DNA of 44,350 nt from Puniceicoccales bacterium (GTDB lineage: Bacteria; Verrucomicrobiota; Verrucomicrobiia; Opitutales; LL51): assembly GCA_031270475.1 (NCBI GenBank), contig JAISXO010000046.1, positions 1 through 44,350 of the forward strand. The letters run 5' to 3'. The translations under genes and the position numbers were made by a program. Every line of letters starts with the position of its first letter. The stretch's first letter is position 1. Under the pieces are notes generated by a model. It saw only the letters and a list, made by a program, of their open reading frames with translations. It was not told where the DNA came from and did no database searches. Below, one piece after another: positions 2,199 to 28,597 of the stretch.

Positions 2199-2368
2199 CT
2201 CGGCCCCCACCCGCGGCGAAGCCGCGGGGGCCAAAGGCCCAATCCCTACCGGGATTGGCAACAAAGTTGCTGCCCTCGTCGCTTCGCGACGAGGGCGGGC
2301 CTTTGGTCGAAATCCGGGTTCAAGGAATGGTATTTCCTGGCGGGGATTTTAAGGGCGCATAGTCCTTA
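2199..2368. repeat. Composite REP-like element: GAA hairpin (2211-2227), perfect four-way junction (2231-2306) and degenerate third module
   Basis: Stem 2231-2240/2297-2306 encloses hairpins 2241-2256, 2257-2271 and 2272-2296; lies between convergent greA and gatA. Confidence 0.9.
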
Positions 2369-3832
2369 GGCCATGTTGGGGAAGCATCGATAAAAGTCGT
2401 GTGCAATTTCGAATTGATGGGCAACGGAAAGCAATTCGGACTCGTGAAATGCTCTACCGATCAATTGAAAGCCGATGGGCAGACCTACCTTTGAAAATCC
2501 ACAAGGAATGGAAATGCCAGGTAAGCCAGCCAAATTTACCGCTACGGTATAGATATCTTCCAAATACATTTGTAAAGGATCATCCATTTTTTCGCCAAAT
2601 TTAAAGGCAGTTGCTGGGGATGCGGGTGATAGAATGACGTCTACAGCTTCGAATGCCCTAGCGAAATCTTCACGAATCCGTGTCCTAACTTTTTGCGCAC
2701 GAATATAATAGGCATCCAAGTGATCACTACTCAATACATAGGTTCCTAAAATGATACGTCGTTTAGCTTCCGAGCCAAAGCCTTCCGTCCGAGATTTGAA
2801 ATAAATATCCAGGGCATTCGTCGTCTTTGGACTACGCCTAGAGTAACGAATGCCATCGAAACGTGCCAGATTAGAAGAAACTTCCGCTGTCATAATCGTA
2901 TAATACGTTGGGATTGCGTAAAGGATATTGGGCAGGGAAATATTGATTATGGAGTAGCCATTTTTCCGATAAAATTCGATGGCATTTTCGATGGTCTGGC
3001 GGACTTCCCCGTCAAGACCTTCCGAAAAATATTCCTTTGGAACGCCAATACGACGAGGTTGTCGATCATTTTTTAATAATTGTCGATAGTTAGGAATTTC
3101 CGTTTTACAGCTCGTAGAATCGCGGTCATCGTAGCCGGCAATAACCTGTAGGAGGAGTGCCAGATCTATTACATTATGGGCGAAGGGTCCAATTTGATCA
3201 AGGGAACTCGCCATTGCCGATAATCCATAGCGGCTAACGAGGCCATAGGTTGGCTTTAATCCCGTTATACCGCAGCAAGTCGCCGGTTGACGCACCGATC
3301 CCCCCGTATCGGAGCCGAGGGCAATGGGGACTTCTCCTACACAAACTGCTGCCGCTGATCCGCCACTACTGCCTCCGGGGACATACTCCAAATTCCAGGG
3401 GTTATGCGTCTTTTGATAGGCCGAATTTTCTGTAGAAGATCCCATGGCGAATTCATCCAGGTTCAAACGTCCGAAGAGGACTGCTCCGGCTTCATATAAG
3501 CGTTCCGTAACCGTCGCGTCGTAGGGACTGATGTAGTGTTCCAAAATTTTGCTACCACAGGTCAAGGGCTGTCCTTTTTCCGCAATGATATCCTTCATAC
3601 CGATAGGAATACCGTCCAATGGTCCGAATACTTGTCCTTTAGCCCGTCGCTCATCGGAAGCTTTGGCCTGTCTAAGGGATTTTTCTTCATCGAGCGATAG
3701 GAATGCTTGAATTTTAGGTTCTACGGCTCGGGTACGTTTGAGAAAAATTTGGATTAATTCCACAGCAGATATCGATTTTTGCGTTAGCATTTGTGCCAGT
3801 TCTTCTGCTGATTTAAAAAAAAGTTCTTCCAT
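2366..3832 (-). CDS. gatA: Asp/Glu-tRNA(Asn/Gln) amidotransferase subunit A
   Basis: Amidase signature PGGSSGGSAAAV, GSDTGGSVRQPA, SSNLARFDGIRY. Confidence 0.97.
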   Translation of the reverse strand: MEELFFKSAEELAQMLTQKSISAVELIQIFLKRTRAVEPKIQAFLSLDEEKSLRQAKASDERRAKGQVFGPLDGIPIGMKDIIAEKGQPLTCGSKILEHYISPYDATVTERLYEAGAVLFGRLNLDEFAMGSSTENSAYQKTHNPWNLEYVPGGSSGGSAAAVCVGEVPIALGSDTGGSVRQPATCCGITGLKPTYGLVSRYGLSAMASSLDQIGPFAHNVIDLALLLQVIAGYDDRDSTSCKTEIPNYRQLLKNDRQPRRIGVPKEYFSEGLDGEVRQTIENAIEFYRKNGYSIINISLPNILYAIPTYYTIMTAEVSSNLARFDGIRYSRRSPKTTNALDIYFKSRTEGFGSEAKRRIILGTYVLSSDHLDAYYIRAQKVRTRIREDFARAFEAVDVILSPASPATAFKFGEKMDDPLQMYLEDIYTVAVNLAGLPGISIPCGFSKVGLPIGFQLIGRAFHESELLSVAHQFEIAHDFYRCFPNMA

Positions 3833-3834
3833 AA

Positions 3835-4122
3835 TTATTCTACAATTCGAGGGACAACAATCTGATTATTTTTTTGTTCCGGAGCATTCATAAGAGCTGT
3901 TTCGACGGAAAAATTTTCTCCGGGATCATCTGTCCGCAAAACATTGCTTTCTTCAAAAGGATGTAGAGTTGGTTCTACGCCGTTGACATCCACTTCCTTC
4001 AATTGCTGTAAGTGAGCGAGCATGGTGTCGAGTTGACCAGGAAGGGTTTTTTGTTCTTCATCTGTCAGCGCAAGACGACACAGCTTCGCAATGTGATCGA
4101 TATCGATATGTTCCAATGTCAT
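3835..4122 (-). CDS. gatC: Asp/Glu-tRNA amidotransferase subunit C
   Basis: IDHIAKLCRL...DVNGVEPT...NAPE...VVPRIVE; directly upstream of gatA; ATG at 4122. Confidence 0.93.
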   Translation of the reverse strand: MTLEHIDIDHIAKLCRLALTDEEQKTLPGQLDTMLAHLQQLKEVDVNGVEPTLHPFEESNVLRTDDPGENFSVETALMNAPEQKNNQIVVPRIVE

Positions 4123-4270
4123 ATTTCCGCTAAAAACTGCATAGTAAATCTCAAAGGTCAAGTTGTATTTCTCTCTGAGCTTGACGTCTACCACTTTTTG
4201 GTATTAATAAATTCTGTTTTAAGGATGAGACGTCGGTTAAATATGGCAAATAATTTAAAAAATATTAATA

Positions 4271-26515: not shown

Positions 26516-27703
26516 GTGTTATATCCCCATTTTAAGTTTGCAGTCACCCATCGCGATGGATTAAGCCGGGCGCGTTGCGGTCTATTGACAACACCCCATG
26601 GCATTCTAGAAACCCCTACCTTCATATTCTGCGCAACAAAAGGAGCAATGAAATCGGTTACGACGCAGCAAATGGAAGAGGCCGGAGCGGAAATTATTCT
26701 CTCCAATACCTACCATCTCCTCCTCCAGCCGGGGCCCGATCGCGTTGCCGAACTCGGCGGACTTCATAGGATGCTCCATTGGAATCGCCCGATGTTGACC
26801 GATTCCGGAGGTTTTCAGATTTTTAGTCTCGGCCATGGCGGTGTAGCTAATGAAATTAAGGGTAAACGCAACTGTAGCATTCCCAAAACACTCCTCAAAA
26901 TCGACGAAGGTGGAGCACAATTTCGTTCCTATGTCGATGGGCGCACCTACGATTTGACTCCGGAAAAATCGATCGAAGTTCAACAAAAATTAGGCGCAGA
27001 TCTTATCCTCGTCTTGGACGAATGTACCCCCTTTCATAGCTCCAAACACTACACGGAATGTTCCATGGAACGCAGCCATCGCTGGGCATTGCGTAGTTTT
27101 CAACAATTTTCCCAAAACAATGATTATCGTCAGGCACTTTACGGCATCGTGCAGGGGGGAATTTATGAAGATTTGCGCAGACGTAGCGGAAATTTTATCG
27201 CTGAACAGGATTTTTTTGGCCAAGCGATTGGTGGGAGCTTGGGCGGAGATCGGACACAAATGCACGATATCGTTGCCATGGCCTGTCAATATATTCGCGA
27301 AGATCATCCTACCCATCTCCTGGGAATCGGTGGAATTTCCGACATTTGGAACGGCGTTGCGAATGGAATCGACACCTTCGATTGTGTCCATCCGACACGG
27401 CTCGCACGGCACGGAGGTGCCCTAACTTTCCCCCAAGAAAACGATGGGAAAGAATTCTTTAACCTTAAAAATGCGCGCTTTGTAAACGATTTAGAGCCCA
27501 TTGATCAAAATTGCTCATGTTATTGTTGCCAAAATTTTTCCCGCGCCTATGTTCATTATCTCTTCAAAGCGCGGGAAATGCTTGGTGGACAGCTTCTGAC
27601 GATCCACAATGTGGCATTTATGGTGCGTTTAGCGAAGAAAATTCGGAATTCAATTCGAGATGGGAGTTTTAAAAAAGCGATGTATTTTTACAGGGGCCCT
27701 TAG
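26516..27703 (+). CDS. tgt: tRNA-guanine transglycosylase
   Basis: LSNTYHL, LTDSGGFQIFSL, GIVQGG, DTFDCVHPTR, CSCYCC zinc site; start inferred at GTG 26516. Confidence 0.95.
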   Translation: MLYPHFKFAVTHRDGLSRARCGLLTTPHGILETPTFIFCATKGAMKSVTTQQMEEAGAEIILSNTYHLLLQPGPDRVAELGGLHRMLHWNRPMLTDSGGFQIFSLGHGGVANEIKGKRNCSIPKTLLKIDEGGAQFRSYVDGRTYDLTPEKSIEVQQKLGADLILVLDECTPFHSSKHYTECSMERSHRWALRSFQQFSQNNDYRQALYGIVQGGIYEDLRRRSGNFIAEQDFFGQAIGGSLGGDRTQMHDIVAMACQYIREDHPTHLLGIGGISDIWNGVANGIDTFDCVHPTRLARHGGALTFPQENDGKEFFNLKNARFVNDLEPIDQNCSCYCCQNFSRAYVHYLFKAREMLGGQLLTIHNVAFMVRLAKKIRNSIRDGSFKKAMYFYRGP

Positions 27704-27752
27704 ACTCAGGAAAATCTGGAGGCGGTCTCGTCTGCAATTATCCGAATATTTT

Positions 27753-28451
27753 ATGTTTTTTTATGTACTTCTGCGGGCACGAGTATCTCGCTGCATCGAT
27801 TACTGTGCTGTGATTTTTAAATTCTATATCAAAAATCATAATTTTGCTAAAACGGATTTTGCTATCCTCAGTGAATATTGGCTGGATTCTCCCTTCGCAA
27901 TCAGTAAGCGTTATTTGCAACTCAAGCTGGAACCGGATCTCTATCAGTATGGAGAAACACCTTTGTTAACCATCGAAAAAATAGCCAAACAAGCCAATAT
28001 CACGGAACGGGACTGCGTTTTTGAACTCGGTTGCGGAACGGGGCGCTGCGCGTTTTGGCTCGCCTATTTTACCGGATGTCGCATCGTCGGTATTGAACAA
28101 ATTCCCGATTTCGTCAACTTTTCTGGCAAACTCGTGGAGAAAAATGATTTTTTAAAGGGAAAAATTAATTTCATCGAGGGAAATTTTCTATCGGCTGACC
28201 TCAGTCCGGCTACGGTTATTTACTGCTATGGAACAAAATTGACCAATGCCCAGATCGAAGCACTCATTCTCAATCTCGATAAAGTACGGCCTGGAACAAT
28301 CGTGATTACGGTCAGCTTCCACCTTAATGAAATCATTTCTTTGAGCAAAAATCAAGCCATCTTGAAAAAACGTTTTCTCTTTATTTCAAAATTTGATGCC
28401 GAATTTTTTTGGGGACAAGCTACGGTATTTGTTCAAAAAGTCCTCGTCTGA
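27753..28451 (+). CDS. Class I SAM-dependent methyltransferase (DOT1-like motif pattern)
   Basis: YGETP, FELGCGTGR, GIE, ATVIY. Confidence 0.8.
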   Translation: MFFYVLLRARVSRCIDYCAVIFKFYIKNHNFAKTDFAILSEYWLDSPFAISKRYLQLKLEPDLYQYGETPLLTIEKIAKQANITERDCVFELGCGTGRCAFWLAYFTGCRIVGIEQIPDFVNFSGKLVEKNDFLKGKINFIEGNFLSADLSPATVIYCYGTKLTNAQIEALILNLDKVRPGTIVITVSFHLNEIISLSKNQAILKKRFLFISKFDAEFFWGQATVFVQKVLV

Positions 28452-28465
28452 AAGTATGGGACACT

Positions 28466-28597
28466 GCCCCCCGCGGCGAAGCCGCGGGGGAAAAGGCCCG
28501 CGATCCCGAAGGGATCCGGGCAACAAAGTTGCCCGTTCTCGTCGCTTCGCGACGAGAGCGGGCCTTTTCCCAGCCCCGGGCAACGCCCGGGGCTGGG
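28466..28597. repeat. Composite REP-like element: GAA hairpin (28468-28490), four-way junction (28488-28571) and extra hairpin (28569-28597)
   Basis: Stem GGGAAAAGGCCCGC/GCGGGCCTTTTCCC encloses hairpins 28502-28516, 28517-28535 and 28537-28557; between convergent genes. Confidence 0.9.

Follow-up and report, generated by a model that had tools for sequence, protein, structure and literature searches.

Bacterial palindromic repeats are poorly understood, and the known ones are single hairpins or pairs of hairpins. The inverted terminal repeats (ITRs) of parvoviruses such as adeno-associated virus (AAV) are nested palindromes with GC-rich arms and AAA/TTT triloops, which occur in flip and flop orders. 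The attC sites of integrons are folded single-strand recombination sites at gene 3′ ends, conserved in structure over sequence, and GC-rich palindromes are known from organelles as the GC clusters of yeast mitochondria and the double-hairpin elements of Allomyces. Here I describe a family of branched repeats in the DNA of a Puniceicoccales bacterium of the phylum Verrucomicrobiota. The window, 44,350 nucleotides in length, is an entire contig (JAISXO010000046.1) of a 968-kb assembly (GCA_031270475.1, called G000 below; 55 contigs, 43% G+C, rated 93.2% complete), and it carries five dispersed elements, each of which folds into a four-way junction. Each repeat unit has a closing inverted repeat, within which lie three shorter palindromes. 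When a review of small bacterial repeats (PMC3184786) was searched for the terms cloverleaf, four-way, branched, three or multiple stem, and tRNA-like, none occurred in it, and no description of branched or four-way-junction bacterial repeats was found in the open-access papers searched.

With moderate confidence, these elements may be regarded as a lineage-specific superfamily of dispersed nested-palindrome DNA repeats, similar to REP sequences or to MITEs (miniature transposable elements with inverted repeats), and molded as DNA by template switching and inversion. The data described below show that copies reached many spacers between genes in a single subclade of one genus, enlarged these spacers, and were then inherited vertically.

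The original prediction, made from the letters of the window, had described five elements (2231-2306, 12844-12916, 15062-15138, 19972-20052, and 28488-28571), each with a closing stem and exactly three hairpins, together with a partial one at 1-26. The five sequences were confirmed. With DNA parameters, every one of them forms the closing stem and the three hairpins, none of 200 dinucleotide shuffles folds equally well, and the z-scores against the shuffles are -9.7, -5.5, -10.2, -8.7, and -8.5 in coordinate order. The copy at 15062-15138 is indeed flawless, having zero unpaired bases outside its loops, and the copy at 12844-12916 is the weakest of the five, with a closing strand decayed at the 3′ side. 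The partial element proved to be the last arm and the closing strand of a copy of the family called A below, cut by the contig end. As had also been predicted, all five copies lie past a stop codon, at a distance of 9-122 nt, and three of them lie between convergent genes. Since RNA parameters give identical folds for both strands of the five elements, the fold alone cannot discriminate DNA from RNA. Related hairpin modules at about 30-92, 2210-2228, 11276-11358, 24690-24793, 28467-28489, and 28570-28598 had been overlooked. The features of the window are as follows, no strand being assigned to any of them; R1, R2, and R3 are covariance models of families B, A, and C, respectively, and because each element matches on both strands, raw model matches are about twice the number of loci.

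1-26: partial family A element; its last arm (AATCCC GGTA GGGATT) is kept, with GGGCCTTTGG as the 3′ closing strand; it matches the family A alignment.
30-92: accessory hairpin modules by the partial element, CCGCGGC-GAA-GCCGCGG (30-48) and CAAGGAG..CTCCTTG (70-92), seen in the fold; the modules recur genome-wide.
2210-2228: CCCGCGGC-GAA-GCCGCGGG hairpin, seen in the fold, abutting the next four-way junction.
2231-2306: family A four-way junction between convergent greA-like and gatA genes; -34 kcal/mol, z -9.7; R2 match 2229-2307, E 1.4e-23; closing stem CCAAAGGCCC/GGGCCTTTGG; arms AATCCC, GGCAAC, and GCCCTCGTCGC.
11276-11358: family E-like cluster of three tandem GC-rich hairpins with no closing stem; weak R1 match at 11274-11345.
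12843-12918: family A element whose arm order is opposite and whose 3′ closing strand has decayed; z -5.5; R2 match, E 1.5e-16; orthologous copies in genomes G009 and G010.
15061-15139: family B element with flawless pairing; -39.3 kcal/mol, z -10.2; R1 match, E 5e-22; closing stem GGTGCACCCGT; arms CCGCGGG, CGACCTTTC, and GGGAGGC; it begins 9 nt past the dxr stop codon and has orthologous copies in 6 species.
19972-20052: family B element with the opposite arm order; z -8.7; R1 match; it begins 48 nt past the lysS stop codon, at a site occupied in the window and in 8 of 11 other same-genus loci, in two orientations.
24690-24793: hairpin cluster between convergent open reading frames (ORFs), seen in the fold; it starts like a truncated family A element (AAAGGCCC and the long arm only), followed by a CCGCGG-type hairpin and then another hairpin.
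28467-28489: CCCCGCGGC-GAA-GCCGCGGGG hairpin, seen in the fold, abutting the next four-way junction.
28488-28571: family A element; closing stem GGGAAAAGGCCCGC; -41.8 kcal/mol, z -8.5; R2 match, E 3.7e-22; its neighbors are a convergent methyltransferase gene and the sole tyrosine recombinase gene (Xer-like) of the assembly.
28570-28598: CCAGCCCCGGGC-AAC-GCCCGGGGCTGG hairpin, seen in the fold, immediately after the family A element.

The whole of G000 was scanned for three simple hairpins enclosed by a perfect 7-mer closing seed, no more than 6 bases being left unpaired at the junction. The 112 candidates obtained fall into two distinct classes of energy, with 56 strong ones below -0.35 kcal/nt and 56 weak ones above -0.2 kcal/nt, and the same scan of a dinucleotide-shuffled genome gave 57 weak candidates and no strong one. 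Thus, the weak class represents chance and the strong class is real. The covariance models added three copies missed by the seed scan, including 12843-12918, so that 59 elements were available for analysis. There are about sixty elements in G000, about 70-100 bases in length, and all 56 strong ones have a closing stem of 6-24 bp. When the number of arms was left unrestricted (two or more allowed), 56 of 60 multibranch elements in G000 were found to be three-armed, 3 two-armed, and 1 four-armed, although some four-arm elements could escape detection because of the upper limits of seed-to-seed size (115 and 140 nt). In the scanned stretches of three other species, three arms were found in 10 of 12 multibranch elements (8 of 8 in G007 and 1 of 2 each in G011 and G004, where the remaining element is two-armed). 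A hairpin-chaining detector was also tried, but it was noisy and insensitive, returning only 16 closed chains of three, and the fold-based scan was kept instead.

The four-way junctions are part of a wider richness in palindromes. Perfect hairpins with stems of at least 8 bp number 335 in G000 versus 43 in the shuffled genome and 37 in the closed genome of G005, a member of the same genus; GC-rich stems make up 214 of the 335 versus 7 in G005. Such a hairpin lies within 150 nt of 27 of the 110 contig ends, where 5.6 are expected. Thus, the assembly breaks at the repeats and the copy numbers given here are underestimates, which matters for the binning of this lineage. A separate repeat family consists of three tandem hairpins (AAGAGTCCCGCGGC.., CAAGGAGTC.., GGGGC...) with 6-10-nt linkers and no closing stem. 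At least seven copies in both orientations were found, at C12:10342-10448, C22:4269-4321, C43:60-113, C45:4808-4860, C42:13675-13727, and C21:2012-2064 (contig:position) and at 11276-11358 of the window. The hexamer CCGCGG is 3.4-fold over-represented in G000 (329 observed, 97 expected), 40% of its sites being intergenic. This excess was rejected as a restriction-site signal, as it reflects only the commonest hairpin module. Self-complementary hexamers (GTGCAC, GCGCGC, and CCGCGG) lie inside several arms and closing stems.

At least four sequence families could be distinguished by the closing stem, with approximate labels assigned by regular expressions.

Family A: closing stem AAAAGGCCC..GGGCCTTTT; arms GATCCC, GGCAAC, and a long arm of the GCCCTCGTCGC type.
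Family B: closing stem GTGCACCCGT..ACGGGTGCAC.
Family C: closing stem GGCAAAAGC..GCTTTTGCC; arms GCGCGC, a long variable arm, and CAAGGAG.
Family D: a loose group with G/C runs.

The elements had been proposed to be conserved in structure rather than in sequence. This holds between families, which share the design and not the sequence; within families and among orthologous copies, the sequence is well conserved. In families B, C, D, and E, the arms often pair a Shine-Dalgarno-like run (AGGAGG, AAGGAG, or GGGAGG) with its complement (CCTCCT or CTCCTT), as at 15111-15127 of the window and within C18:7444-7523 of G000. If transcribed, such arms would hold sequestered sequences resembling ribosome-binding sites.

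Compensatory changes, which had been predicted from a few pairs, were found in families A, B, and C and between orthologous copies. In family C, both sides have changed at 25 of 39 pairs and 90.7% of the cells are paired, versus 33-52% when the partner columns are slid; in family A, the values are 17 of 34 pairs and 92.7%; and in family B, both-side changes occur at 20 of 33 pairs. For families C and A, none of 500 shuffles reaches the observed values on any measure except the count of further pair types (32 of 500 and 18 of 500, respectively). These comparisons favor the tested structures, as the structures were derived from the same sequences. Among the orthologous elements downstream of dxr, the closing stem GTGCACCCGT/ACGGGTGCAC of four species is replaced by GTACACCTGT/ACAGGTGTAC in G004 and G012, and the arm GGGAGGC/GCCTCCC is replaced by GGAAGGC/GCCTTCC in the same two genomes.

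The pairing is almost perfect. In the stems of the 59 elements, there are 2059 Watson-Crick pairs (99%), 16 G·T, 3 A·C, and 6 other mismatches. The minimum-free-energy folds of the 43 tRNA genes of G000 have 913 Watson-Crick and 131 G·T pairs, a contrast that is inflated both by the detection method (perfect 7-mer seeds and a DNA energy threshold) and by the use of minimum-free-energy folds for the tRNAs. The prediction that most loops are of 3 nt and closed by C-G agrees with the genome-wide counts: 147 of the 177 loops are triloops, 131 are closed by C-G, and the commonest sequences are GAA (40), TTC (42), AAA (18), and TTT (17), with no TTCG (UUCG in RNA) and a single GAAA. Loops of the d(GCGAAGC) type are stable. 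The junctions are flush, most copies having 0-4 unpaired bases there.

Where do these elements lie? Genes were called with a crude ORF caller and supplemented with ARAGORN tRNAs and small ORFs having a homologue in G005, so that the following counts are approximate; they cover 55 of the 56 strong elements (one at a contig edge was left out), and 609 spacers longer than 20 nt serve as the background. There is an enrichment in convergent spacers (19 of 55 elements versus 116 of 609 spacers, p = 0.005), co-directional spacers hold 26 of 55 versus 373 of 609, and divergent spacers, with 10 of 55 versus 120 of 609, are not depleted. At least one gene end is faced by 45 of the 55 copies, given these gene calls. 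The orientation relative to the upstream gene is unbiased (3:5 in family A, 2:4 in family B, and 5:5 in family C).

To what extent the elements were inserted can be judged from G005, which has none. For 23 of the 55 elements, the two flanking genes lie close together within the first 400 kb of G005. At 12 sites, these genes are adjacent in G005, although one of these, the lysS site, has inconsistent strands there; the spacer is 1-117 nt in G005 versus 118-574 nt in G000. A terminator hairpin is present in only one of the 12 spacers of G005, downstream of gatA, and several of the others are co-directional gaps of 1-60 nt. Thus, the elements are spacer-enlarging insertions, including insertions inside probable operons, and not general replacements of terminators. 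The site between gatA and the greA-like gene has a plain two-way terminator in G002 and G005, a family A element in G000, a different four-way junction in G007 and G013, and strings of hairpins in other species. Presence and absence also vary elsewhere: the lysS site is filled in 9 of 12 loci and a response-regulator site in 3 of 13 genomes.

These observations bear on the possibility that the elements act as RNA, the four-way junction at gene 3′ ends terminating transcription and/or shielding the mRNA from exonucleases under selection on the RNA fold. I regard it as unlikely. The RNA folds equal the DNA folds in strength on both strands, all five copies of the window follow stop codons, and convergent spacers are enriched. 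In families A and C, a T-run lies at or within the 3′ closing strand on both strands. The replacement of a plain two-way terminator at the gatA site of the element-free G002 and G005 by a family A element in G000, as well as the conservation of orthologous copies, would also suit such a role. However, the share of copies in divergent spacers is that of the background. In family B, the stem is preceded by a T-run and followed by an A-run, whichever strand is read, and family D has neither. The scarcity of terminators at the corresponding sites of G005, where several gaps are short and co-directional, argues against a general function in termination, as do the near absence of wobble pairs, the lack of UUCG loops, and the single GAAA loop. 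Moreover, two same-genus genomes at least 90% complete carry no copies. Thus, termination or mRNA stabilization, which had been named as the alternative, fails as a general role, but families A and C, when transcribed, could function as two-way terminators or 3′ end caps. The idea that family A arose by insertion into the loop of an older terminator was rejected, since no plain terminator of the form AAGGCC-short loop-GGCCTT was found in G000. Of 34 AAGGCC/GGCCTT pairs in this genome, 24 are spaced by 50-79 nt, and the five pairs closer than 30 nt belong to arms of family C or to other sequence.

The orthologous copies at the lysS and dxr sites reveal inversions. With the plus strand of lysS fixed, the window and five relatives show the arm order AAGAGGC, AAACCTTC, GCGGC, and three relatives (L053, L054, and L056; 3 of 9 filled loci) show the reverse order. 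The sister-like pair L056 and L057 has arm variants in common but the opposite arm order, and thus at least two inversions must have occurred at this site. Because the closing stem is a perfect inverted repeat, inversion in situ looks the same as re-insertion in the other orientation; the former is preferred because the site is occupied throughout the clade while the flanks are randomized. At the dxr site, the arm order is constant in six species and the loops are inverted (TCT versus AGA, TTT versus AAA, and GAA versus TTC). In alignments oriented by arm order, the short arms hold one loop polarity (GAA 7 and TTC 0 in arm 1 of family A; AAA 12 and GAA 5 in arm 2), and the long arm of family A mixes TTC (10) and GAA (8). 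Since both loops and the whole interior are inverted between orthologous copies, the event must be one of DNA. The preference for DNA over RNA in the original prediction thereby gains support, which comes also from the 2059 Watson-Crick against 16 G·T pairs, the GAA/TTC triloops closed by C-G, and the unbiased orientation.

Orthologous elements are far better conserved than their surroundings. The identity between species is 0.81 at dxr (15 pairs) and 0.87 at lysS (36 pairs), and the 40-nt flanks on either side are 0.51-0.55 identical, where random 40-mers score 0.47 with the same aligner. The near-identical sister species G009 and G010 have almost equal flanks. The conservation of the elements points to purifying selection on the sequence, to an exchange by conversion among the copies, or to flanks that are older than the copies. 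Possible sources of a constraint are a bound protein, use of a transcript, or conversion between copies. A separate reading is that of binding to the double helix: each arm might be a half-site, a 3-nt spacer, and a second half-site for a dimeric DNA-binding protein, the elements being clusters of palindromic operators in which the cloverleaf never forms. The conservation of orthologous arm sequences around 3-nt centers that vary or invert would be expected of such sites, and copies are found in divergent, promoter-bearing spacers at the background rate. On the other hand, the halves of the closing repeat are 50-75 bp apart, and its outer part varies yet stays complementary, which a duplex site does not require. 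Compensatory changes in the arms also speak against operators, and to serve four families of unrelated sequence, a genome of 1 Mb would have to encode many different binding proteins. It is very improbable that the elements are operator clusters.

In the favored reading of DNA repeats molded by template switching, the following steps are proposed. The arms of each inverted repeat would undergo template switching or recombination with one another, which would shape the elements and keep their pairing perfect. Homogenization of the arms would yield compensatory changes with almost no wobble pairs, the arms would be extended until 3-nt loops and flush junctions remain, and whatever lies between arms of about 10 bp or more would be inverted, be it the loop of a long arm or the whole three-arm interior ("flip/flop"). 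In excerpts of a study of template switching between inverted repeats, arm homogenization, spacer inversion (including one GAA to TTC change in a perfect repeat), and repeated reversible flips are described (PMC8604942). Template switching can also expand the arm size according to excerpts of another paper (PMC13100816), from which I infer the arm-extension step, and the same process has been proposed, in the part of a third text that was at hand, to create and maintain RNA hairpins (PMC8794818). If template switching does extend arms, a Holliday-like shape need not have been selected for, as flush junctions and loops of 3 nt would follow from the extension.

A different role of the junction had been proposed: that an HUH endonuclease, or an enzyme that resolves or binds junctions, takes the folded single strand as its substrate and moves or inverts the element, with selection acting on a Holliday-like single-stranded DNA junction. 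Three arms are strongly preferred, the junctions of most copies are flush (0-4 unpaired bases), and GAA triloops closed by C-G dominate, all of which would be expected of such a substrate. The flip/flop inversion recalls the hairpinned ends of parvoviruses, conservation of the stem sequence would suit a bound protein, and both RuvC and an Xer-like recombinase are present. I consider this reading improbable nonetheless. GAA and TTC loops are equally common on any strand, so that no single strand has the "good" loops, and the form can arise by template switching (PMC8604942), with no need to select for a junction. As common housekeeping genes, RuvC and Xer would be expected in element-free relatives too.

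Six-frame Pfam searches of the 93.2%-complete G000 bear on this. RuvC is represented once. The single tyrosine recombinase gene lies at 28628-29545 on the minus strand of the window, 56 nt from the family A copy at 28488-28571; its product scores best as XerC/XerD (304 and 276 bits), below both equivalog cutoffs, and as an integron integrase only 144 bits against a cutoff of 265. The gene suggests a single-recombinase Xer system. The Y1 transposase/RAYT family (PF01797), the only HUH family searched (Rep families were not), has no match at E ≤ 0.01, and 6 of 14 control genomes were positive; neither an IS110-type DEDD domain, a TnpB zinc ribbon, an rve domain, nor a reverse transcriptase was found in the six-frame search. 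Thus, the claim of a dedicated HUH or junction-resolving enzyme was not borne out: one ordinary RuvC and one Xer-like recombinase were left. Of 797 crude ORFs in G000, 222 have no tblastn match in G005, and Pfam analysis of the 19 largest of these revealed no nuclease or transposase other than a truncated large serine recombinase.

Several of these results weigh against the favored reading as well. To the negative Y1, DEDD, TnpB, rve, and reverse transcriptase searches are added two rejected candidates. The sole DDE transposase of G000 is a degraded fragment on contig C26, with no flanking inverted repeats and no closing-stem motifs nearby; having no ends in common with the elements, it was rejected as a parent insertion sequence. 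The serine recombinase (C38:1-1191) occurs in 4 of 14 genus genomes only and does not track the elements. No clean pair of filled and empty sites with a target duplication was seen in the aligned copies and flanks, the flanks being randomized between species, and thus the mobility is deduced only from copy number and dispersal. Template switching is itself inferred from its known footprints, not observed, and it explains neither the three arms nor the conservation between species. Unbiased arm conversion should not slow substitution, and therefore the conservation needs a further constraint that template switching does not supply; conservation this strong may be the sign of a real function for the host. 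Like the preference for exactly three arms and the conserved sequence, the way in which the elements are copied is not accounted for by the reading favored here.

In another reading, the elements would be a new class of bacterial repeat, with the perfect four-way DNA junction, and not a sequence, as the functional unit. The cloverleaf would extrude from single-stranded or supercoiled DNA, and RuvABC, HU, or the lone Xer-type recombinase would recognize it, invert it, and help to copy it without a transposase of its own; a use by the host would then place purifying selection on the three arms and the stem sequences. I consider it doubtful. Loss of nucleases that control palindromes was also considered as a cause of the accumulation and was rejected, because there is no contrast between element-bearing and element-free genomes among the five compared: SbcD_C has no match, the large subunit of exonuclease VII has none above the cutoff, and MutS is present in all five.

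How far do the elements extend? The same-genus sample comprises 14 genomes of 0.6-1.1 Mb, G000 and the genomes of 13 other species. R1, R2, and R3 match in 11, 8, and 11 of them, respectively. No match to any of the three models was found in G005 (one contig, 95% complete) or in G002 (90% complete), and the generic fold scan of the first 400 kb of the closed genome G005 gave no multibranch element. The identity of GatA to that of G000 is as follows.

G009, G010, G011, G004, and G012: 80-81%.
G001, G007, G008, and G013: 75-77%.
G006: 73%.
G003: 71%.
G002: 69%.
G005: 68%.

The element-rich genomes are thus those nearer to G000 by this measure. In the order-wide search with R1, 2 of 121 genomes matched (G000 and G004 only), and neither of the two genomes of the sister genus did. 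The elements are confined to part of one genus of Verrucomicrobiota with genomes of about 1 Mb. Within this range, family A has about 27 strong loci in G000 versus one strong locus each in G004, G009, G010, and G012; its excess in G000 is a copy-number burst in one lineage. The three-arm design may reach beyond the three modeled families. Four-way junctions of unrelated sequence were seen upstream of lysS in a more distant Puniceicoccales (L070:2769-2867; 66% LysRS identity) and in a member of the same genus (L056:2391-2473).

A phage or plasmid source was rejected because no family was found as a junction in viral contigs. There, the family B pattern had no match, and the arm pattern of family A hit one plain hairpin only. 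The family C pattern matched 66 times, about the order expected by chance (rough arithmetic), and none of these matches folds below -0.3 kcal/nt. A pattern search of metagenomes for the family B closing stem returned 42 matches, with no family B junction among them; roughly one half are tRNA-Arg(ACG) genes of other bacteria, and long hairpins account for the remainder.

The latter result raises the question of whether the elements are cloverleaf repeats derived from tRNA, that is, degenerate copies of tRNA genes whose arms were later perfected. The topology of one closing stem and three arms is that of a tRNA, and the family B closing stem is the acceptor stem of tRNA-Arg(ACG) genes of other bacteria. 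However, a tRNA origin is hardly tenable. ARAGORN found no tRNA in the window, the elements lack D-loop and T-loop motifs, and none of the acceptor stems of the 43 tRNA genes of G000 and the 45 of G005 matches a closing stem, their own tRNA-Arg(ACG) genes beginning with GCGCTTC and GCGCCTC. Since the tRNA genes of these genomes are without the family B stem, the origin was rejected and the acceptor-stem match in other bacteria is ascribed to chance. The query of Rfam, by which the original prediction had proposed to look for a known family, gave no match at the gathering score in the window. At E ≤ 1, positions 1-30000 of the window yielded four noise matches, none on the five elements; two of them fell on the cluster at 24690-24793. 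These are weak two-strand matches (24689-24766) to sodF sRNA and anti-hemB. Among five other element-bearing stretches, the only Rfam matches were two tRNA genes.

Some observations on the genomes may be added. The serine recombinase at C38:1-1191 is cut by the contig start, and short fragments resembling the C-terminal part are present on contigs C34 and C9, as well as in G004, G009, and G010; these look like remnants of a mobile element. The ORFs absent from G005 include two ubiquitin C-terminal hydrolase-like proteins, several ankyrin-repeat proteins, a MORN/GYF protein, and a patatin-like phospholipase (contigs C2, C5, C13, C29, C33, and C53; loci L206, L208-L210, L214, L220, and L225). 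Such eukaryote-like domains suggest a life in or on a eukaryotic host. In the window, the greA-like gene (204-2108, plus strand) encodes a 634-residue protein with a long N-terminal extension, the GreA domains being confined to the last 155 residues, and it resembles long GreA fusion forms of NCBIfam.

A genome of about 1 Mb with dozens of branched repeats of fixed design, in which a closing stem and three arms are common to sequence-unrelated families, offers a natural setting in which to ask how complex a fold can be built and maintained by template switching alone. This bears directly on how far covariation can be taken to prove a functional RNA. Should there be a protein partner or a role as RNA, the elements would represent a new structure-specific system.

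Among the described systems, the REP/BIME/REPIN-RAYT sequences of proteobacteria are similar in several respects. As far as the excerpts of the literature go, both are GC-rich palindromes of high copy number in spacers, mosaics of a few hairpin modules, enriched between convergent genes, lineage-restricted, and long-lived. In contrast, the REP unit is a single imperfect hairpin or an inverted doublet in these excerpts, whereas the elements described here are built as nested four-way junctions (with three arms in 56 of 60 multibranch elements); no RAYT was found in G000, and the elements are not depleted from divergent spacers. Bacterial MITEs (Correia, ERIC, and RPE) resemble them in being dispersed, non-coding, 70-130 nt in length, and bounded by terminal inverted repeats (here the closing stem), as well as in presence or absence between relatives and in copy-number bursts. 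However, neither a target-site duplication nor a parent insertion sequence sharing the ends was seen here, and the interior consists of three perfect palindromes, whereas that of a MITE is unstructured.

Two-way intrinsic terminators are approached by family A, with its A-run, GC stem, and T-run, and by family C, with a hairpin directly before GCTTTTGCC on both strands, and one orthologous site (gatA) carries a plain terminator in relatives. Here, the loop is replaced by three hairpins, families B and D have no T-run after the stem, and many copies lie where no terminator is expected. The attC sites of integrons have in common with the elements a folded form, a structure conserved more than the sequence, and a position at gene 3′ ends; the elements differ in forming no cassette arrays, in lying in mixed orientations among housekeeping genes, in having no R/L core boxes that could be seen, and in the Xer-like nature of the recombinase. 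The organelle palindromes are likewise small GC-rich hairpins invading the spacers of a reduced, AT-richer genome with no known transposase, but they consist of one or two hairpins and belong to organelles, whereas three hairpins within a closing stem are found here in a bacterium.

With the AAV ITRs the elements share the flip/flop of the interior, six lysS orthologues having one order and three the reverse. The ITR has two inner arms (a T-shape with a three-way junction) instead of three and forms the ends of a linear single-stranded DNA genome that are processed by the HUH protein Rep, whereas the elements here are internal to a chromosome in which Y1, the only HUH family searched, was not found. 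Finally, the template-switched inverted repeats, as described in the excerpts of PMC8604942, show the same arm homogenization, spacer inversion, and reversible flips. They are single hairpins at single loci, and template switching does not copy DNA to new loci, whereas the repeats described here are nested in three levels, multi-copy, and dispersed.

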